Shown piece after piece: positions 12,992 through 22,024 of a stretch of DNA of 32,000 nucleotides (within the stretch, counting starts at the first letter, position 1; every line of letters starts with the position of its first letter). The notes beneath the pieces are model-generated. The model did not search any database. It was not told the DNA's origin and worked only from the letters and a program-made list of their open reading frames with translations. The translations under genes and the position numbers were made by a program. The DNA is from Acetatifactor sp. (GTDB taxonomy: Bacteria; Bacillota; Clostridia; Lachnospirales; Lachnospiraceae). Location of the stretch: assembly GCA_016290775.1 (NCBI GenBank), contig JAEEVF010000006.1:51990-83989 (forward strand), in the 5' to 3' direction.

Positions 12992-15043
12992 ATGAAGAAA
13001 CGCATTAAATTAAAGGGTCGCATCAAGTTTTTCACAAGCTTTAGCTTTTATCTGGGGGCGCTCCTTGCCGCAGTGGATCTTGCCATCTTTATGATGGACG
13101 TGCGCGCAGGCTTGCTTCTCCTTGGCTTTACCATTTTCTATTTTGGCGTGACCATTGCCTTGTATTTCTACAACAAGCCAGTGATCATGAATGAGCTGGT
13201 GAGCTTTGCGACGGAATATGGCCAGATCCAGCGAAAGCTCCTTCGAGAGCTGGACATTCCTTACGCACTGCTTGATGATGACGGGCGCGTGATCTGGACC
13301 AACGCGGCGTTTGAAAGCGTCGTGCATCAGCCCAAGGGCTTTAATAAGTCCATCACGGCGTTGTTCCCCACGATCACCCGCGACAAGCTGCCGGACGATT
13401 CCGGCCTGGATGAAGCGCAGTACGAGCTCTCCTACGAGGAAGGCGAGTACCTCGCAAAGTTCCGTAAGATCTCTCTGATGGAGACCGCGGAGCACAGCGA
13501 CATCATTGACGTTGATGGCTACAACAGTTATCTGATCGCGGTATATCTTTTCGACGAGACGGCGCTTCGGATCGCGTTGCAGGAGTTGGACGACCAGAGC
13601 CTCGCGGCCGGAATGATCTACCTGGATAACTACGAAGAGGCCTTAGAGAGCGTAGAAGAGGTAAGAAGGTCCCTCCTCACCGCACTCATCGACCGAAAGA
13701 TCAACAAGTATATCGCTTCGCTGGACGGCATCAGCAAGAAGCTGGAGAAAGATAAGTATCTGGTCATCCTTCGAAAGAAGGCGATCACGCAGCTGCAGGA
13801 ATCGCGCTTTGACCTCCTTGAGGAAGTCAAGACCGTGAACATCGGTAACGAGATGGCCGTTACGATCAGTATTGGTATCGGCTTGAATGGTCTCTCCTAC
13901 GCGCAGAATTACGAGTTCAGCCGCAATGCCATTGACCTTGCGTTGGGCCGCGGCGGCGACCAGGCCGTGATCAAGACGCCGGACAGCATCACTTATTACG
14001 GCGGCAAGAGCCAGCAGGTGGAAAAGAACACCCGCGTGAAGGCAAGAGTGAAGGCACACGCCCTTCGCGAGATCATTACCGCAAAGGACCGCGTGCTTGT
14101 CATGGGACACCGCATGCCCGACGTGGACAGCTTTGGTTCGGCGGTCGGCATCTACCGCATCGCGCGTGCACTGGACCGTAAGGCCAACATTGTCCTGACG
14201 GAGTCCACGAGTGCGATCCAGCCTTTGGTGGATCTGTTCAGAAACAATCCGGACTATGATGACGACATGATCATCACCGGTTCGCAGGCGCTTGAACTTG
14301 CGGAATCCAATACGGTGCTTGTGGTCGTGGACGTGAACAAGCCGTCCATCACCGAGTGCCCTGAGCTTCTTCGGTATTGCAAGTCCGTCGTGGTGCTTGA
14401 CCATCACCGCGCAGGCACGGAGACGATCGAGAATGCAACGCTCTCTTACGTGGAGCCTTACGCATCCTCTGCCTGTGAGATGGTATCGGAAGTGCTGCAG
14501 TACATCTCCGACGGCATCAAGATCCGTCCCGAGGAAGCAGACAGCATGTATTCCGGTATCATGGTGGATACCAACAACTTCGTGACCAAGACCGGCGTCC
14601 GTACCTTCGAGGCGGCGGCATATCTAAGGCGCAGCGGCGCGGACGTAACGCGCGTGCGCAAGCTCTTTCGTGAGGATGCGGAAGAATATAAGGCGAGGGC
14701 AGACGCCGTCAGCCAGGCGGAGATCTACCGTCAGGCATTTGCCATTTCCGTATGTACGGCTGAGGACGTGCCAAGTCCCACCGTGATCGGAGCGCAGGCA
14801 GCCAATGAACTCCTGAACATCAAGGGCATCAAGGCAAGCTTTGTGCTCACGGATTATCAGGGCAAGATCTATGTCAGCGCGAGATCCATTGATGAAGTGA
14901 ACGTGCAGATCATCATGGAGCGCATGGGCGGCGGCGGTCACATGAACGTTGCGGCCTGCCAGCTTGAGGGAACGGGCCTCGTGGAGGCGATCGGGTTCTT
15001 AAAGGGCACGCTGGATGAGATGCTTGACAACGGCGAGATTTAA
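12992..15043 (+). CDS. gdpP: Cyclic-di-AMP phosphodiesterase GdpP (2 TM + PAS-like + degenerate GGDEF + DHH/DHHA1)
   Basis: Two N-terminal TM helices. DHH motifs are present: MGHRMPDVDSFGS, VVLDHHR, and GGGH near the C-terminus. Position immediately upstream of rplI-dnaB matches yybT in Bacillus. Confidence 0.9.
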   Translation: MKKRIKLKGRIKFFTSFSFYLGALLAAVDLAIFMMDVRAGLLLLGFTIFYFGVTIALYFYNKPVIMNELVSFATEYGQIQRKLLRELDIPYALLDDDGRVIWTNAAFESVVHQPKGFNKSITALFPTITRDKLPDDSGLDEAQYELSYEEGEYLAKFRKISLMETAEHSDIIDVDGYNSYLIAVYLFDETALRIALQELDDQSLAAGMIYLDNYEEALESVEEVRRSLLTALIDRKINKYIASLDGISKKLEKDKYLVILRKKAITQLQESRFDLLEEVKTVNIGNEMAVTISIGIGLNGLSYAQNYEFSRNAIDLALGRGGDQAVIKTPDSITYYGGKSQQVEKNTRVKARVKAHALREIITAKDRVLVMGHRMPDVDSFGSAVGIYRIARALDRKANIVLTESTSAIQPLVDLFRNNPDYDDDMIITGSQALELAESNTVLVVVDVNKPSITECPELLRYCKSVVVLDHHRAGTETIENATLSYVEPYASSACEMVSEVLQYISDGIKIRPEEADSMYSGIMVDTNNFVTKTGVRTFEAAAYLRRSGADVTRVRKLFREDAEEYKARADAVSQAEIYRQAFAISVCTAEDVPSPTVIGAQAANELLNIKGIKASFVLTDYQGKIYVSARSIDEVNVQIIMERMGGGGHMNVAACQLEGTGLVEAIGFLKGTLDEMLDNGEI

Positions 15044-15072
15044 GGCGAGAGTACAAGAAAGGAAGAACAAAC

Positions 15073-15519
15073 GTGAAGATCATTTTACTAGTAGACGAAA
15101 AGAAGCTTGGGAAGAAGGGTGACATCATCGAGGCCAGCGAAGGCTATGCGAAGAACTACATCATCCCGAAGAAGATCGGCGTGGAAGCGACGCCCAAGAA
15201 TCTGAATGACTTAAAGCTTCACAAGGCAAACGAGGAAAAGAAGGCCAAGGAGCTTTTGGAGCAGGCACAGGCGCTTGCAAAGGATTTAGAGGACAAGCCG
15301 GTGGTCGTAAAGATCAAGGCTGGCGAGGGCGGAAAGGTCTTTGGGTCCGTTTCCACGAAGGAAATCGCGGCAGCAGTGAAAGAGCAGCACGGGATTGAGA
15401 TCGACAAGAAGAAAATCCAGCTTGCTGAGAACTTAAAGAACTTTGGCACTTATGAGGTGTTACTCAAGCTCCATCCTCAGGTAGCGGCAAAGCTTTCCGT
15501 GAAGGTGACGGAAGAGTAG
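15073..15519 (+). CDS. rplI: 50S ribosomal protein L9
   Basis: GTG start after AAAGGAAG. (M)KIILLVDEKKLGKKGDIIEASEGYAKNYIIPKK is the canonical L9 N-terminus. Confidence 0.95.
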   Translation: MKIILLVDEKKLGKKGDIIEASEGYAKNYIIPKKIGVEATPKNLNDLKLHKANEEKKAKELLEQAQALAKDLEDKPVVVKIKAGEGGKVFGSVSTKEIAAAVKEQHGIEIDKKKIQLAENLKNFGTYEVLLKLHPQVAAKLSVKVTEE

Positions 15520-15622
15520 GCGAATAACGGATTGCTTGTCTGGAAGGGTTGGCCGAGGAACGGCGTGGGGACTTTGGGCGGGCAGATTTTGGAACATGTA
15601 GGTTTGGGGAGGAAGCTCTGTC

Positions 15623-16981
15623 ATGGCAGATGAGAACGTGATCAAAAGAACAATGCCGAATAACCTTGCGGCTGAACAGAGCGTGATCGGTGCGATGCTC
15701 CTGGATGCCAATGCCATTACGGCGGCAGCGGACATCCTGACGGGAGAGGATTTTTATAATAAGCAATATGGCGTTTTGTTCGAGGCCATGCTGGAACTCC
15801 GCAATGCGGGCGCACCCGTGGACCCCGTGACACTCCAGGCGAAGCTGACGGAAAAGAACCTTCCTCCGGAGGTTTCGAACCTTGGATTCCTCATCGACAT
15901 GCGCGATGATGCCATCACGCCAGTTCATATCAAGCAGTATGCGAAGATCGTTCATGACAAGTCCGTGCTCCGCAAGATGATCCGCATCAGCGAGGAGATC
16001 GCAAATTCCTGCTATACGGAAAAGGACGGCGTGGACACCATCTTCGAGGAAGCGGAGAAGAATGTCTTCACGCTCGCGCAGCAGCGTAATACGGGCGAAT
16101 TTGTGCCGATCCGGCAGATCGTGAACTCTGCCATGGACAAGATCGACAAGGCGTCCAAAATGAGCGGTTACGTGACGGGAATCGCTACCGGATTCGTTGA
16201 TCTGGATTATCGGACCGCCGGCATGCAGCCCTCAGACCTGGTGCTGATCGCAGCGCGTCCTTCCATGGGAAAGACCGCATTTGCACTGAATATCGCACAG
16301 CACGTCGCATTCAGGCAAAAGATGTGCGTTGCCATTTTCAGTCTGGAAATGAGCAAGGAACAGCTCGTAAATCGTATGTTCTCGCTGGAGTCCAAGGTGG
16401 ATGCGCAAAAGCTCCGTACGGGGCAATTACAGGACAATGAGTGGGAGAGGCTGATCGACAGTGCGGCGGAAATCGGAAAATCCAATCTGATCATCGACGA
16501 TACCCCCAGCATTTCGGTTTCGGAGCTTCGTTCCAAATGTCGGAAATATAAAGCAGAATATGGCCTGTCCATGATCATCATCGACTACCTGCAGCTGATG
16601 AGCGGAAGCGGAAAGAGTGAATCGCATCAGCTCGAGATCGCAGAGATCTCGAAGAGCCTTAAGGCCGTGGCCAGAGAGCTGAACGTGCCGGTGCTTGCAC
16701 TGTCACAGCTTTCCCGAGGCGTGGAAGGTCGTCCGGACCACAGACCCATGCTTTCGGACCTGCGTGATTCAGGTGCCATCGAGCAGGATGCCGATGTGGT
16801 AATGTTCATCTATCGTGATGATTATTATCATCCCGACACGGAGCGAAAGGGAATCTCGGAGATCATCATTGCCAAGCAAAGAAACGGCCCCATTGGAACG
16901 GTGGATCTGGCTTGGCTTCCGGAATATACGAAGTTCGCAAATCTCGACAGGAGACAACAACAGAAGGAAAACAGAGATTAA
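15623..16981 (+). CDS. dnaB: Replicative DNA helicase (DnaB/DnaC family)
   Basis: N-terminus PNNLAAEQSVIGAMLLD, Walker A ARPSMGKTAFALN, Walker B IIIDYLQLM, and ALSQLSR. Confidence 0.95.
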   Translation: MADENVIKRTMPNNLAAEQSVIGAMLLDANAITAAADILTGEDFYNKQYGVLFEAMLELRNAGAPVDPVTLQAKLTEKNLPPEVSNLGFLIDMRDDAITPVHIKQYAKIVHDKSVLRKMIRISEEIANSCYTEKDGVDTIFEEAEKNVFTLAQQRNTGEFVPIRQIVNSAMDKIDKASKMSGYVTGIATGFVDLDYRTAGMQPSDLVLIAARPSMGKTAFALNIAQHVAFRQKMCVAIFSLEMSKEQLVNRMFSLESKVDAQKLRTGQLQDNEWERLIDSAAEIGKSNLIIDDTPSISVSELRSKCRKYKAEYGLSMIIIDYLQLMSGSGKSESHQLEIAEISKSLKAVARELNVPVLALSQLSRGVEGRPDHRPMLSDLRDSGAIEQDADVVMFIYRDDYYHPDTERKGISEIIIAKQRNGPIGTVDLAWLPEYTKFANLDRRQQQKENRD

Positions 16982-16990
16982 GACATGCAA

Positions 16991-17030
16991 AAAAAGAAGG
17001 CATTTCGGTCGGAACCGAAATGCCTTTTGT
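16991..17030. terminator. Bidirectional intrinsic terminator between dnaB and the convergent ferredoxin gene
   Basis: AAGGCATTTCGG-tcggaa-CCGAAATGCCTT, flanked by an A-run upstream (a T-run on the minus strand) and TTGTGTT downstream. Confidence 0.75.
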
Positions 17031-17048: not shown

Positions 17049-17219
17049 TTATTCCTCTTCGATCGTACCAACGGGGCACTGACCTGCGCATGCGCCGCAG
17101 CTGATGCACTTATCAGGATCGATCTCAAACTTACCATCGCCCATGCTGATCGCACCAACGGGGCACTGAGCCTCGCAAGCACCACAAGCTACGCAATTAT
17201 CACCAATTTTGAATGCCAT
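17049..17219 (-). CDS. 2x[4Fe-4S] clostridial-type ferredoxin (56 aa)
   Basis: MAFKIGDNCVACGACEAQCP...CISCGACAGQCP contains two CxxCxxCxxxCP motifs. AGGAGGA SD before ATG 17219; the longer ORF-track start at 17300 has no SD. Confidence 0.9.
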   Translation of the reverse strand: MAFKIGDNCVACGACEAQCPVGAISMGDGKFEIDPDKCISCGACAGQCPVGTIEEE

Positions 17220-17308
17220 AATACATATCCTCCTTCTACTCATGCGACAAGCAAATGCTCGTTCATAAATTATAATATTATAAGTTGTTATCAATTTCAA
17301 TAAAAATT

Positions 17309-17324
17309 TGATAAAATTTTATCA
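17309..17324. promoter_or_regulatory. Perfect 16-nt palindrome TGATAAAATTTTATCA overlapping the pflA stop codon, upstream of the ferredoxin promoter region
   Basis: Read directly from the sequence. On the minus strand, TTGAAA-17-TATTAT follows about 10 nt downstream. Half-sites TGATAAA/TTTATCA are Fur/PerR-like, but the spacing is not the canonical 7-1-7. Confidence 0.3.
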
Positions 17325-18089
17325 CTGGTGGGTGATCCCAAGCTCTTCACGACGCTTTTTGATACCGCGAAGGATTGCCGCCTTCTTGTCGAGAAGCTTG
17401 TCCTTATCCATGGGGGGAACGCCCTTTAAGCGGTATTCCATGCCGAGCTTTTCATATTTGCTCTCACCCATGGTGTGGTAGGGCAGTACGTCAAGGGCCT
17501 TTAAGTTGTGGAACTGGCCGATAAAATACCCCAGCTTTTCCAGGTAAAACTCATCGTCGGTAAGGCCGGGAACCACCACGTGACGGATCCACATGTCCAC
17601 GCCCTTCTCGTCGAGATAGGCCGCGAATTTCAGGATGTTCTCATTGGGCTGTAAGCAAAGCTCTTTGTGCTTTTCCGGATCGATATGCTTGATGTCGAGC
17701 ATTACCAGGTCCGTCAAGGTCATGAGCTTGTCAAACTTTTCCATGAGCGGCGCGTTGTTCGGGTTAAAGGCAATGCCGGACGTATCCAGGCAGGTGTGGA
17801 TGCCTTTTGCCTTTGCGAGGGAATATAACTCGATCAGAAAATCAATCTGCATCAGAGGCTCGCCGCCGGTGGTCGTGATGCCGCCGCCGTTTTGATAAAA
17901 AGGCGCGTTGCGCTCATATTGCTCGATGATATAGGATGCCTCCATGGGCGTGCCTGCATTCATTTCCCAGGTGTCGGGATTGTGGCAGTAGGCGCAGCGC
18001 ATGGGGCAGCCCTGAAAGAACACGACAAAGCGTGTGCCGGGGCCGTCTACGGTTCCAAAGCTTTCCAAAGAGTGGATTCTTCCAAGCAT
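17322..18089 (-). CDS. pflA: Pyruvate formate-lyase activating enzyme (radical SAM)
   Basis: MLGRIHSLESFGTVDGPGTRFVVFFQGCPMRCAYCHNPDTW contains the CxxxCxxC radical-SAM cluster motif in the PflA-typical context. Length is 255 aa. Confidence 0.93.
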   Translation of the reverse strand: MLGRIHSLESFGTVDGPGTRFVVFFQGCPMRCAYCHNPDTWEMNAGTPMEASYIIEQYERNAPFYQNGGGITTTGGEPLMQIDFLIELYSLAKAKGIHTCLDTSGIAFNPNNAPLMEKFDKLMTLTDLVMLDIKHIDPEKHKELCLQPNENILKFAAYLDEKGVDMWIRHVVVPGLTDDEFYLEKLGYFIGQFHNLKALDVLPYHTMGESKYEKLGMEYRLKGVPPMDKDKLLDKKAAILRGIKKRREELGITHQ

Positions 18090-18188: not shown

Positions 18189-18431
18189 TTAGATGGACTC
18201 ATGGAAGGTACGGGAGATAACGTCTGCCTGCTGCTCGGGAGTGAGCTTGATGAAGTTTACAGCGTATCCGGAAACGCGGATCGTCAGCTGAGGATACTTC
18301 TCAGGGTTCTTCTGAGCGTCCAGAAGGGTCTCTCTGTTAAGAACGTTTACGTTCAGGTGGTGGCCACCCTTGGTTGCGTAGCCATCCAGTAAGTTAACCA
18401 GGTTGTCAACCTGTGCTTTAGATGCTGCCAT
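18189..18431 (-). CDS. Free-standing glycyl-radical domain (80 aa): the detached C-terminus of PFL, GrcA/YfiD-like
   Basis: [80 protein letters not shown] carries the RVSGYAV glycyl-radical signature and aligns to the last ~80 residues of E. coli PflB (from memory). It has its own AGGAGG-N8-ATG. Confidence 0.85.
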
Positions 18432-18454: not shown

Positions 18455-18661
18455 TTATTTGTAATCGTCTAAGCCTTGGTGAAGAGTCGGAACACTGCAT
18501 GCCAGGGGAGTTCTGGAACAATCCGTGCATCCCATGGTCTGAACGGTCTTGGATTGATCCGCCTGTGCCTCGTCAGTGTCGACGTTCACGTGGCCTACGC
18601 CGTTTGCAAAGCCTTCATCCAACATTTTTACAAGATCGTCAATCTTCTTTTGATCGTCCAT
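18455..18661 (-). CDS. 68-aa Cys-containing mini-protein between the PFL core and the glycyl-radical domain; function unknown
   Basis: AGGAGG-N8-ATG at 18661 (the ORF track starts 9 nt earlier, at a GTG inside the spacer). Sequence: MDDQKKIDDLVKMLDEGFANGVGHVNVDTDEAQADQSKTVQTMGCTDCSRTPLACSVPTLHQGLDDYK. The N-terminal ~23 residues resemble [23 protein letters not shown] of the next cistron. No RVSGY motif. Confidence 0.5.
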   Translation of the reverse strand: MDDQKKIDDLVKMLDEGFANGVGHVNVDTDEAQADQSKTVQTMGCTDCSRTPLACSVPTLHQGLDDYK

Positions 18662-18693
18662 TGGTTTCACCTCCTGACCAATATATAGTTTTA

Positions 18694-20733
18694 TTATTTG
18701 TTGAGATCTACTTCGATGTCGCCGGCGAATACCTTATCCTCTTTACCAAGAGCGCCAGGGATGATGGTGAAGGTATTGGAGATACCATCCTGTGCATCAT
18801 TGAAGGGCAGCTTGGATACGGAAGACAGGGATGCAACTGCACCGTGGCTGTCACGGCCGTGCATGGGGTTAGCACCAGGAGCGAAAGGCTGGCCCTTACG
18901 ACGTCCGTCAGGCGTATTACCGGTAGCCTTACCATAGGTAACGTTAGAGGTAATGGTCAGAATGGAAGTGGTAGGGAAGCCATCTCTGTAGGTGTGATGT
19001 CTTCTGATAGCGGTCATGAACTTGTGAACGATGTCCTGAGCGATCTCATCAACACGGTCATCATCATTACCATACTTAGGGAAGTCACCAGTGGTCTTGA
19101 AGTCAACGATGATGCCATCCTCGTCACGGATCACTTCAACCTTAGCATACTTGATTGCGGACAGGGAGTCTGCAACGATGGAAAGACCAGCGATACCGGT
19201 TGCGAAATATCTGCGAACGTCTCTGTCATGAAGAGCCATCTCTGCTCTCTCATAGCAGTACTTGTCATGCATGTAGTGGATGATGTTCAGGGTGTTAACG
19301 TAAACGTCTGCCTGCCACTCGATCATATCCATGAACTTGTCGTAAACATCCTGATACTCAAGAACGTCACCGGTTACAGGACGATACTTAGGACCTACCT
19401 GCTTCTTGGTTACTTCATCGATACCACCGTTCAGAGCGTACAGTAAGCACTTAGCCAGGTTAGCACGAGCGCCGAAGAACTGCATTTCCTTACCGATTCT
19501 CATGGAGGATACGCAGCAAGCGATGCCGTAGTCATCACCATGGGTTACTCTCATCAGGTCGTCGTTCTCGTACTGGATGGAAGAGGTCTGGATGGACAGC
19601 TTCGCGCAGTATCTCTTCCAAGCTTCAGGAAGTCTGGTGGACCAAAGAACGGTCAGGTTGGGCTCGGGTGAAGCGCCCAGGTTGGTCAGGGTGTTCAGGT
19701 AACGGAAGCTCATCTTGGTTACCATGTGTCTGCCGTCAACGCCAACGCCGCCGAGGGACTCGGTTACCCAAACGGGATCGCCTGCGAAGATCTGGTTGTA
19801 CTCAGGAGTACGAGCAAACTTGATGCAACGAAGCTTCATGATGAAGTGGTCAACGAACTCCTGGATCTGCTCCTCGGTGAAGGTGCCGTTAGCCAGGTCA
19901 CGCTCAGCGTAGATGTCAAGGAAGGTAGAGGTACGGCCAAGGGACATTGCAGCACCGTTCTGCTCCTTAACTGCGCACAGATATCCGAAGTAAGTAGCCT
20001 GAATTGCTTCCTGAACGTTGGTTGCAGGATTGGAGATGTCGCAGCCATAGGATGCAGCCATTTCCTTCATCATCTTCAAAGCAACGATCTGCTCGGAGAT
20101 CTCCTCGCGAAGACGGATCACGTCATCGGTCATTACGCGGCCGGTGGAATCCTTCTGCGCCTGCTTGTCCTCGATCAGTCTGTCGATACCGTAAAGAGCA
20201 ACTCTTCTGTAGTCGCCAATGATACGGCCACGGCCATATGCATCAGGAAGACCGGTGATGATGTGGGAAGAACGGCAAGCTCTCATCTCTGCGTTGTAAG
20301 CATCGAAGCAACCTGCGTTGTGAGTCTTTCTGTGAACGGAGAAGAACTCGGAGATCTCAGGATCTACTTCATAGCCGTTGTCAGAGCAAGCCTTCTCTGC
20401 CATACGGATACCGCCGTAAGGCTGAAGGGAACGCTTGAAGGGCTTGTCAGTCTGGAAGCCTACGATGGTCTCCTTGCTCTTGTCAAGATATCCAGGGCCG
20501 TGAGAGGTGATGGTGGAGATAACCTTGGTGTCCATGTCAAGAACGCCGCCGGCTTCTCTTTCCTTCTTCTGAAGATCAAGAACCATGTTCCAAAGGTCCT
20601 TGGTGTTCTGGGTGGGGCCGGCCAGGAAGGACTCATCACCGTCATAGGGATGATAATTTCTCTGGATGAAGTCACGAACGTTAACTTCCTTGTCCCACTT
20701 GCCACGTACAAAATCTGTTTCAATTGGTTTCAT
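18694..20733 (-). CDS. pflB: Pyruvate formate-lyase (formate C-acetyltransferase) catalytic core, lacking the C-terminal glycyl-radical domain
   Basis: PFL-typical sequence throughout, including the active-site Cys pair in [12 protein letters not shown]. It ends ...[25 protein letters not shown]-stop, whereas full-length PFLs continue for ~80 residues through RVSGY. AGGAGG SD sits 9 nt before ATG 20733. Confidence 0.92.
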
Positions 20734-20827: not shown

Positions 20828-20856
20828 ATTATATTGAAAACAAGGGTTACAGTCAA
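20828..20856 (-). promoter_or_regulatory. Near-consensus sigma-A promoter for the pfl operon
   Basis: The minus strand reads TTGACT (20856-20851), 17-nt spacer, TATAAT (20833-20828), about 95 nt upstream of the pflB ATG. Confidence 0.6.
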
Positions 20857-21002: not shown

Positions 21003-21194
21003 ATGACAGGTATCACGAAAGAGATGACGATCGGCGAGATCCTTCGCAAGAGCCCTGAAGTGGCTCCCGTTTTGTTAGAGGCAGGCATGCATTGCCTTGG
21101 ATGTCCTTCCGCACAGGGCGAATCCATTGAGGAGGCTGCGCTGGTGCATGGCATTGACATTGACGAGCTGATGGCAGCCATCGAGCAGCTTTGA
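21003..21194 (+). CDS. DUF1858 / hybrid-cluster-protein-associated redox disulfide domain protein (63 aa)
   Basis: [49 protein letters not shown] contains the CxxC motif in the characteristic DUF1858 context. AGGAG SD. Confidence 0.85.
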
Positions 21195-21283: not shown

Positions 21284-21973
21284 TTAGTTTGCCAGATTCT
21301 GTATGCAGTTGGAAGCCATGATGGTTTCACAATGCTCCTTGAGGAAGATCTCGCTGATGCCGCCGCGCACCACCTTGCCGTACTCGGAGAGCACGTTGCA
21401 AAGCCTGCCGTAATCCTCCGGCGTGGCCTCGCCCTTACTGATGGTGAGCAAATACTGGTCCTTTTTTGTGTCCTTGTAAAGTGCGGTAGGGCATGGGCAG
21501 GCACTCCCGATCTGGGATGCCGCGTCCATAACTTCGGAAATCGAAGAAAAGACAAAGATGCGGGTGGGGCGCGCCGGATCGTCTGGCACGGGCTCCTCCT
21601 TTAATTGCTCGGCGAAGGGACGCAGGCGATCCTGCAATTCTTCGTCATAGCCTTCAAAGTCATCCCCTTCCTCGTAGGAGTCGTTGCTTGGCGAGAACCG
21701 CGCAAACCGCGTGTCCAGCTCCTCGGGATCCTCCACCTTCGTGATCAGGAGCACTACGCACTCCGCGTTCATGGGAATGGCTTCTATCATCAGGGGAATG
21801 TCTTCCGCCTCGAAACCAAATTCAAAATTGGCCTGCTGCATCATCTCCCGAAAGAGGCGTTTGGCCTTTTCGGTGCCATATGCAAGCTCGCTCAGCTTGA
21901 GCTGGCGGCTGGCCAGATCTTCTTTTGTCAAGGTGCAGCGAATCTGATTATCATTGATCTTTTCAATTTTCAT
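21284..21973 (-). CDS. mecA: Adaptor protein MecA (ClpC/ClpE adaptor)
   Basis: MKIEKINDNQIRCTLTKEDLASRQLKLSELAYGTEKAKRLFREMMQQA is the typical MecA N-domain, followed by an acidic linker and a C-terminal domain. The start is chosen at ATG 21973, 8 nt after GGAAGG. Confidence 0.85.
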   Translation of the reverse strand: MKIEKINDNQIRCTLTKEDLASRQLKLSELAYGTEKAKRLFREMMQQANFEFGFEAEDIPLMIEAIPMNAECVVLLITKVEDPEELDTRFARFSPSNDSYEEGDDFEGYDEELQDRLRPFAEQLKEEPVPDDPARPTRIFVFSSISEVMDAASQIGSACPCPTALYKDTKKDQYLLTISKGEATPEDYGRLCNVLSEYGKVVRGGISEIFLKEHCETIMASNCIQNLAN

Positions 21974-21995
21974 ATGCATCGCCTTCCTTTCCTTT

Positions 21996-22024
21996 ATCAT
22001 ATACTTTCGCCCCAAGTTCGTCAA
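21996..22024 (-). promoter_or_regulatory. Candidate sigma-A promoter for mecA
   Basis: The minus strand reads TTGACG (22024-22019), 17 nt, TATGAT (22001-21996). Confidence 0.5.

Follow-up and report, generated by a model that had tools for sequence, protein, structure and literature searches.

A small cysteine-containing protein encoded at the split of a pyruvate formate-lyase in Acetatifactor sp. as a probable radical-less relative of the glycyl-radical domain

Among glycyl radical enzymes, pyruvate formate-lyase (PFL) is the most widespread, and it carries out a central fermentation step in anaerobes of the gut and the rumen. Here, we describe a protein of 68 amino acids (hereafter mini-protein) that is encoded in a stretch of 32,000 nucleotides from Acetatifactor sp. 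(Lachnospiraceae; assembly GCA_016290775.1, contig JAEEVF010000006.1, positions 51,990 to 83,989). We refer to this whole stretch as the window and count all positions from its first letter. The gene of the mini-protein lies between a truncated PFL core and a stand-alone glycyl-radical domain (GRD), and its sequence is best read as that of a radical-less paralogue of the PFL glycyl-radical domain.

The closest described relatives are the spare-part radical domains, among which we considered Escherichia coli GrcA (YfiD), the NCBIfam families GrcA, GrcA2 and GrcA3, Y06I of phage T4 and Pfam PF01228. In a 2026 review they appear as repair devices for oxygen-damaged full-length PFL only, and spare parts are listed for PFL only (PMC13450708). 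Like these domains, the mini-protein is small and stand-alone, appears to derive from the C-terminal part of PFL, has the segment of helix and beta-10 (y-beta1) with which they enter the PFL barrel, and is encoded together with PFL and its activase. Unlike them, it has neither the RVSGY(A/S)V loop nor a conserved glycine and therefore cannot carry the radical; it stays below the thresholds of Pfam Gly_radical and of GrcA3, its C-terminal half consists of an unrelated cysteine motif, and it coexists with a true GrcA3 encoded alongside. We found no similarity between the mini-protein and the disordered N-terminus of E. coli YfiD, of which only the beta-1 strand aligns.

A second point of comparison is a segment of E. 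coli PFL itself. Once activated, PFL that has been truncated at residue 695 is competent in catalysis, yet its binding of YfiD is undetectable and radical installation is 32-fold below that in PFL cut at residue 733 (PMC8683613). Because of these losses, residues 696-733, which comprise beta-10 and half of the Gly loop and are required although they must vacate the slot, were termed the "recognition element" (Andorfer et al. 2021, PMC8683613). The mini-protein likewise represents a second, radical-less copy of beta-10 with adjoining sequence next to a spare-part domain, and it would supply the equivalent of E. coli PFL residues ~680-710. It differs from the element in being a separate polypeptide, in also having the preceding helix, and in having the cysteine motif instead of a recognisable half Gly loop. 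By analogy, we infer that it may be comparable, also in function, to the recognition element of the oxygen-cleaved E. coli PFL.

Other glycyl radical enzymes have small subunits, namely benzylsuccinate synthase (BSS; beta and gamma), 4-hydroxyphenylacetate decarboxylase (HPAD; gamma) and 1-methylalkylsuccinate synthase (MASS; beta, gamma and delta), and these are thought to influence the access or movement of the radical domain (PMC13450708). The same review lists small subunits for these three enzymes only and none for PFL (PMC13450708). The mini-protein resembles them in being small, cysteine-containing and encoded beside the catalytic subunit and the activase. The subunits of BSS, HPAD and MASS are similar to high-potential iron-sulfur proteins (HiPIP-like) or rubredoxin-like and hold four-ligand Fe or Fe-S sites, whereas the mini-protein has two universal cysteines, is not detectably related to them and is not predicted to have a compact fold.

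A third gene at the split of a pyruvate formate-lyase

The features of the split locus are as follows.

18694..20733, minus strand: truncated PFL core, 679 amino acids (Pfam PFL-like, TIGR01255, alignment to E. coli PflB)
18697..18729, minus strand: C-terminal tail of the core, 11 residues, an insertion relative to E. coli PflB that is conserved in split cores
18670..18675, minus strand: Shine-Dalgarno (SD) motif AGGAGG, 8 nt 5' of the ATG of the mini-protein gene
18455..18661, minus strand: mini-protein gene, 68 amino acids and stop (open reading frame, homologues, selection data)
18563..18661, minus strand: codons 1-33 of the mini-protein gene, putative docking segment of helix and strand (homology to the GRD)
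18464..18544, minus strand: codons 40-66 of the mini-protein gene, VQTMGCTDCSRTPLACSVPTLHQGLDDY, short strand (39-43) followed by the cysteine motif (family alignment and monomer model)
18189..18431, minus strand: stand-alone GRD, 80 amino acids, with RVSGY (Gly_radical, NF038360)

The core matches the Pfam PFL-like family (E = 5.6e-217) and TIGR01255 (1085.9 bits, profile positions 5-665 of 744), and reaches positions 1-51 only of the Gly_radical profile. The 80-amino-acid protein covers positions 50-106 of that profile (E = 1.7e-23). Because the two proteins match complementary halves of Gly_radical, we conclude that the PFL gene is split and that the mini-protein reading frame is located at the split. 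Aligned together, core and GRD are 62% identical to the single chain of E. coli PflB, whose C418/C419 correspond to the active-site cysteine pair C406/C407 of the core. The split falls after residue ~680 of E. coli PflB in the numbering of the literature, ahead of the helix (683-693) and the beta-10 strand (703-709), and the core is without this helix, the beta-10 strand, the Gly loop and the C-terminal helix. The GRD just meets the cut-off of NCBIfam NF038360, "autonomous glycyl radical cofactor GrcA3" (158.7 bits versus 158), and will also be called GrcA3 here. No other radical domain is encoded next to the window core, which has none of its own. Longer database entries of the GRD that could have been natural fusions were rejected as mis-called starts or assembly duplications.

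In the related loci that we collected (L001-L099), annotation pipelines name the 80-amino-acid radical domain "autonomous glycyl radical cofactor GrcA/GrcA3", implying a repair spare part, and the adjacent "formate C-acetyltransferase" is truncated. Within the 11-residue tail of the core, none of F669, G671, D676 and L677 varies among 12 split cores, including one that is 71% identical, and the tail is a possible docking contact for the mini-protein or GrcA3. The same 12 cores also share C376 and C429 (at about 19606..19608 and 19447..19449, minus strand), which are Ala387 and Thr441 in E. coli PflB; this comparison covered the 12 split cores and E. coli PflB.

The mini-protein gene runs from an ATG at 18661..18659 to a TAA stop at 18457..18455 and is separated from the core by 32 nt and from the GRD by 23 nt. 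The initial annotation had described a cistron with AGGAGG-N8-ATG exactly between the PFL core and the GRD gene, and both coordinates and neighbours were verified. A longer reading of 71 amino acids from a GTG at 18670 is possible; all homologues begin at the Met-Asp of the ATG. The translation signal recurs in the relatives, with an SD-like motif 5' of the mini-protein gene in 79 of 87 related loci. In comparison of the window gene with related loci, the proportions of nonsynonymous and synonymous differences (pN and pS) are 0.13 and 0.77, with synonymous sites saturated, and the median ratio of nonsynonymous to synonymous rates (dN/dS) is 0.08, versus 0.055-0.06 for the core, the GRD and pflA. 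All 80 loci fetched have the gene at full length and free of frameshifts, so that the losses or frameshifts looked for in relatives with the same split did not appear. The mini-protein reading frame is a real gene under strong purifying selection.

These data bear directly on the explanation that the gene is a decaying, functionless relic left when the radical-domain gene was duplicated in part. The homology described below is restricted to the 5' third of the neighbouring gene and the protein is without annotation in databases, as such a remnant might be. The dN/dS of 0.08 with saturated synonymous sites and the lack of any frameshift in 80 loci effectively refute it; in addition, invariant residues lie within the non-homologous half, and the family comprises 217 diverged clusters, with the context kept in the checked members of several. 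We regard decay as hardly credible.

The family is large. A word-indexed search returned 1744 relatives, and the best 120 of these 1744 are 62-77 amino acids long, 74-94% identical and, wherever a name is given, called "hypothetical protein". Counting one genome per species, at least 576 species genomes carry relatives. At E <= 1e-3, an exhaustive profile search of 1.84 billion representatives gave the 217 clusters, formed at 50% identity; of the 150 clusters listed, nearly all have 60-90 amino acids, and none is a fusion of the mini-protein to PFL, the core or a GRD. Longer entries of the family that might have been fusions turned out to be chimeric gene calls, variants with acidic tails, or spurious repeats, and were rejected.

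The order core, mini-protein, GRD on one strand is found in 80 of 80 loci fetched, and pflA and the ferredoxin gene usually follow. Further, this order is kept, where the contig allows, by six proteins from other 50%-identity clusters that share about 40-46% identity with the window protein: their loci encode a core of 683-686 amino acids, the mini-protein, a GRD of 78-81 amino acids and then the activase where the contig reaches. One of these distant members belongs to Candidatus Egerieicola pullicola (Oscillospiraceae). The context therefore holds in Lachnospiraceae and Oscillospiraceae. In five loci retrieved by their GRD, a reading frame of 62-67 amino acids without Pfam hits lies between a 677-amino-acid core and the GRD and may, by its position and length, correspond to the mini-protein. 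Five loci (L008, L015, L026, L052 and L065) have pflA 2-4 kb downstream of the GRD, versus about 100-300 nt elsewhere, and owing to this distance we assume that genes are inserted between GRD and activase.

Relationship of the mini-protein to the glycyl-radical domain

The N-terminus of the mini-protein had been aligned by eye with the next cistron. In a single BLASTP comparison the two proteins share 15 of 39 residues (E = 1e-4), and a profile-profile alignment (hhalign) of 89 mini-family sequences with 21 GRDs gives a probability of 95.2% and E = 2.5e-8 over 33 ungapped columns, pairing mini-protein residues 1-33 with GRD residues 2-34. The resemblance is thus better than chance and survives statistical alignment. 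Six of six family members scanned match the first ~30 positions of NF038360 (E = 1.8e-5 to 0.074), and, at E = 7e-7, the hidden Markov model of the mini-family retrieves orphan GRD genes that are unrelated. Along E. coli PflB, the mini-protein has its best local match at residues 685-713 (760-residue numbering), in the region of the helix and beta-10, with an E-value of 0.094 that is not significant alone.

Conserved positions coincide between the two families (mini-protein/GRD: L10/L11, V11/V12, L14/L15, D15/D16, G21/G22, H24/H25, N26/N27 and V27/V28). As the positions conserved in the mini-protein fall on ones that are invariant in the GRD, the same packing environment is suggested for both. 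We conclude, as far as alignments can tell, that residues 1-33 of the mini-protein are homologous to the GRD helix and beta-10 strand, which completes the 10-stranded barrel. This agrees with the assignment of the segment to the helix and barrel strand that dock the radical domain, since hhalign limits the homology to that part.

The remainder of the protein follows a different course. When hhalign is made to align the proteins from end to end, the score drops from 47.4 to 37.3, which means that GRD homology is not detectable past residue 33, in line with the complete divergence after the docking segment that had been noted. Pairings made by eye between the C-terminal half and the Gly loop or the C-terminal helix (VQTMGC with IRVSGY, PTLH with RTFH) were rejected on the same drop in score. 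With homology confined to helix and beta-10 and with conserved positions in common, the earlier view of a diverged duplicate of the docking segment that carries a different finger finds support.

The window protein has cysteines at positions 45, 48 and 55 and no RVSGY, as first described. Conservation of all three cysteines did not hold: Cys48 and Cys55 are family-wide, and Cys45, together with G44, is of the Lachnospiraceae type only. G21, C55 and P58 do not vary among 89 diverse members, and D15, G23, H24, C48 and A54 are each conserved in at least 90% of them. Across the 89, no glycine of the C-terminal half is conserved, and the radical glycine is absent. The family signature reads [IV]D[DE]LVxMLDxxxxxGxGHxN[VI], a variable acidic linker, V-x-T, DC-x(4-6)-AC-x-[VI]PTLxxGxD and an acidic tail; in summary form, the family-wide cysteine motif is DC-x6-AC-x-VPTL.

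The AlphaFold2 model of the mini-protein monomer has a mean predicted local distance difference test (pLDDT) score of 66, with a helix at residues 2-19 (pLDDT about 80) and strands at 24-28 and 39-43. The cysteine motif is modelled as low-confidence coil, which is the behaviour expected of a segment that would fold on a partner. In the GRD monomer model (pLDDT 61), a helix at 5-18 matches the mini-protein helix in the hhalign register and is followed by another helix, the Gly hairpin and the C-terminal helix. A profile search of all PDB sequences with the mini-protein returned chance hits only and no related structure. Foldseek found nothing in the PDB at E <= 0.001, a weak negative given the model's pLDDT of 66.

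In Pfam, the window protein has no hit at E <= 1, and five homologues gave weak or spurious hits only, none above threshold, with two relatives reaching E = 0.08 at best. Against GrcA3 it scores 14.1 bits over the first ~27 profile positions only, below the cut-off of 158. Neither Pfam, NCBIfam (apart from this partial GrcA3 match), the PDB nor the literature holds an entry describing the mini-family, and literature searches on GrcA3, split PFL, separate polypeptide and Acetatifactor PFL returned no description. The earlier statement that the family is undescribed thus holds in these sources.

The conserved residues could also belong to a metal site. The mini-protein would then be a structural small subunit on the surface of the core that binds Zn, Fe or Fe-S through His24, Cys48 and Cys55 (with Cys45 or a core ligand), similar in function to the small subunits of BSS, HPAD and MASS, and possibly controls the movement of the radical domain. 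Conservation among the polar residues is highest for D15, H24, C48 and C55, the window protein combines three cysteines with an invariant histidine, and one cluster of HPAD gamma uses a site of three cysteines and one histidine (PMC13450708). The gene also lies beside those of the catalytic subunit and the activase, as the genes of those small subunits do. However, a four-ligand site made of C45, C48, C55 and H24 could exist in the window protein, and only C48, C55 and H24 are conserved family-wide (>=90%), so that the universal cysteines are two. D15 and H24 are equally invariant in the cysteine-free GRD, so that common descent accounts for their conservation in the mini-protein. Its sequence matches none of the solved small subunits, and the model has neither a compact HiPIP-like or rubredoxin-like fold nor a Foldseek match. 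We consider a metal-binding subunit quite unlikely.

Operon layout and surroundings

On the minus strand of the window, five genes are arranged head to tail (core, mini-protein, GRD, PflA and ferredoxin), bracketed by a promoter-like and a terminator-like site.

20828..20856, minus strand: promoter-like site TTGACT-17-TATAAT, 11/12, upstream of the PFL core gene (consensus match only)
17322..18089, minus strand: PFL-activating enzyme (PflA), radical S-adenosylmethionine (SAM) protein, 255 amino acids (Radical_SAM and Fer4_12; colinear in most related loci)
17049..17219, minus strand: 2x[4Fe-4S] ferredoxin, conserved form of 56 amino acids (FdxA_fam, 85.6 bits)
16997..17026, minus strand: intrinsic-terminator-like hairpin at the operon end, 13 pairs and T run

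The site at 20828..20856 is the probable promoter of the operon. Between the core, mini-protein, GRD and activase genes, strong terminator-like hairpins are absent, with weak 5-pair matches only, inside pflA. As read from this layout, the mini-protein gene is co-transcribed and syntenic with the genes for the core, GrcA3, the activase and the ferredoxin. The ferredoxin is likely the electron donor for the activase. Its reading frame can be extended to 83 amino acids (17049..17300, minus strand); related loci call and conserve the last 56 amino acids only (start MAFKIG..., 17219), and the longer reading is probably an artefact.

Divergent from the operon lies a gene for a DUF1858 protein of 63 amino acids (21003..21194, plus strand; PF08984, E = 6.9e-25; HCLGC). 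It adjoins the operon in 46 of the 48 related Lachnospiraceae loci with enough upstream sequence and is absent from the distant loci L081, L088 and L098; the protein could be a redox partner or reflect mere conserved synteny. The flanks (12992..16981, plus strand, and 21284..22024, minus strand) contain housekeeping genes for a GdpP-type cyclic di-AMP phosphodiesterase, ribosomal protein L9, DnaB and MecA, and on account of them we place the window in a chromosomal, non-mobile context of a rumen or gut member of the Lachnospiraceae. These genes also border the operon in related loci L093-L096, and the loci closest to the window are L001-L006. An Rfam scan of the window gave no match.

Possible roles of the mini-protein

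We tentatively propose that the mini-protein serves a naturally split PFL as its third component, a subunit for assembly or a placeholder that promotes the binding and activation of GrcA3. It would dock on the core through its helix and beta-10 module, at or beside the slot of GrcA3; this location is suggested because the mini-protein keeps, under selection, the packing residues of the GRD, is without the radical loop and is made together with a core that is without those elements. The C-terminal motif, unstructured in isolation, would fold against the partner. In this way the mini-protein may keep the GRD-less core competent and may help a non-covalent radical domain to bind and become activated. 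Speculatively, Cys48 and Cys55 (with His24) might add a redox or metal function at the mouth of the active site. The window core ends even earlier than the E. coli PFL truncated at 695, at about residue 680, and GrcA3 is short, without an N-terminal half such as YfiD has.

Several points weigh against this proposal. The binding site on the core is placed by homology only, and the monomer model with its pLDDT of 66 is of low confidence. A shared slot would make binding of the mini-protein and of GrcA3 mutually exclusive, which would fit a placeholder or competitor better than a simultaneous helper. The recognition element is covalently tethered to the core in E. coli; here it would be free. The assembly model also leaves the invariance of Cys55 and Pro58 unexplained.

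Additionally, both partners occur outside the split locus. In Eubacterium ventriosum and a relative (L090/L091, 6001..6210; L097, 5001..5219), an orphan mini-protein gene has its own promoter-like site, SD motif and terminator, and no PFL gene lies within 5-6 kb; for the proposed role this lineage is an unexplained exception. The orphan neighbourhood is conserved, with a transglutaminase-like gene upstream and YitT/DUF2179 and proB downstream. The orphan homologues end in ACSVPT(I/A)ELPGD..., and that of E. ventriosum is found in more than 25,000 assembly blocks. E. ventriosum was not among the names of the GRD clusters (names only). GrcA3 genes likewise stand alone, away from any core or mini-protein gene. 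Such orphans (L101/L102, 3501..3746; L104-L108, 3501..3743) are 90-91% identical to the window GRD, monocistronic and located between the spoIIIA operon and other genes, with no PFL core or mini-protein gene within 3.5 kb, and the gene of L101, the one inspected, comes with a promoter-like and a terminator-like signal of its own. These genes may be true extra spare copies.

The orphans of the E. ventriosum lineage, with their different conserved neighbourhood, also speak for a function unrelated to PFL docking, such as that of a precursor of a ribosomally made peptide or of a thiol protein in its own right, for which the pfl linkage would be historical. The layout of a helical segment followed by a cysteine-containing C-terminus would suit a leader and its peptide. 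Unlike in sactipeptide and ranthipeptide systems, no SPASM/twitch radical SAM maturase, protease or exporter is linked to the mini-protein gene: the sole radical SAM protein nearby is the 255-amino-acid PflA-type activase without SPASM/twitch, and the other operon genes encode PFL parts and the ferredoxin. At its N-terminus the protein has specific homology to the docking segment of PFL, and the linkage to split PFL extends across two families of Clostridia. An unrelated function is, in our estimate, very improbable.

A close rival to the assembly or placeholder subunit is a cap, competitor or regulator. Here, the mini-protein would fill the slot of beta-10 and Gly loop instead of GrcA3, with its cysteine loop at the active-site cysteines, and would keep the core inactive or shielded until displaced by GrcA3, for instance in an oxidising environment or as long as an activated radical domain is not available; Cys48 and Cys55 would together serve as a redox switch or a hydrogen-atom donor. 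The docking residues common to GRD and mini-protein imply one site and hence mutual exclusivity, and the rival would account for an otherwise unexplained invariant cysteine within a part that the monomer model shows as flexible. Exchange at the site is possible in E. coli, where GrcA replaces a dead but intact radical domain (PflB G734A with GrcA makes formate; PMC12338860). Orphan copies with their own promoter would also suit a separately regulated factor. Conversely, co-transcription between core and GRD with a strong SD motif would mean that an inhibitor is made constitutively alongside its target, and the universal cysteines are two only. We see a cap or competitor as possible, if rather doubtful.

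In a further variant, which we hold to be unlikely, PFL is a tripartite enzyme in which GrcA3 serves as a freely exchangeable, consumable cofactor. The mini-protein would be a dummy domain that plugs the slot, places its invariant cysteine against the catalytic Cys-Cys pair to protect or reset the active site, and then yields the slot to activated GrcA3. The idea that it acts as a dummy for the silent protomer of a half-of-sites dimer was set aside, as half-site reactivity of PflB is disputed in vivo (PMC12338860).

Taken together, we rate the mini-protein as an undescribed accessory protein, apparently derived from the GRD, of a naturally tripartite PFL. A permanently split PFL is present in hundreds of species of Lachnospiraceae and Oscillospiraceae, with a conserved, unannotated third protein encoded between its pieces. 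The annotation gap is systematic, with thousands of entries named "hypothetical protein" and GrcA3 read as a repair part. If the mini-protein acts as a dummy domain, it would be a new kind of accessory subunit of glycyl radical enzymes and a natural counterpart of the second beta-10 copy in the spare-part repair of E. coli. If it binds the core, PFL would gain its first described accessory subunit, the locus would provide a natural three-piece system for the exit of the radical domain from the barrel and its return during activation, and the "recognition element" idea, which stems from oxygen-cleaved E. coli PFL with YfiD, could be tested directly.

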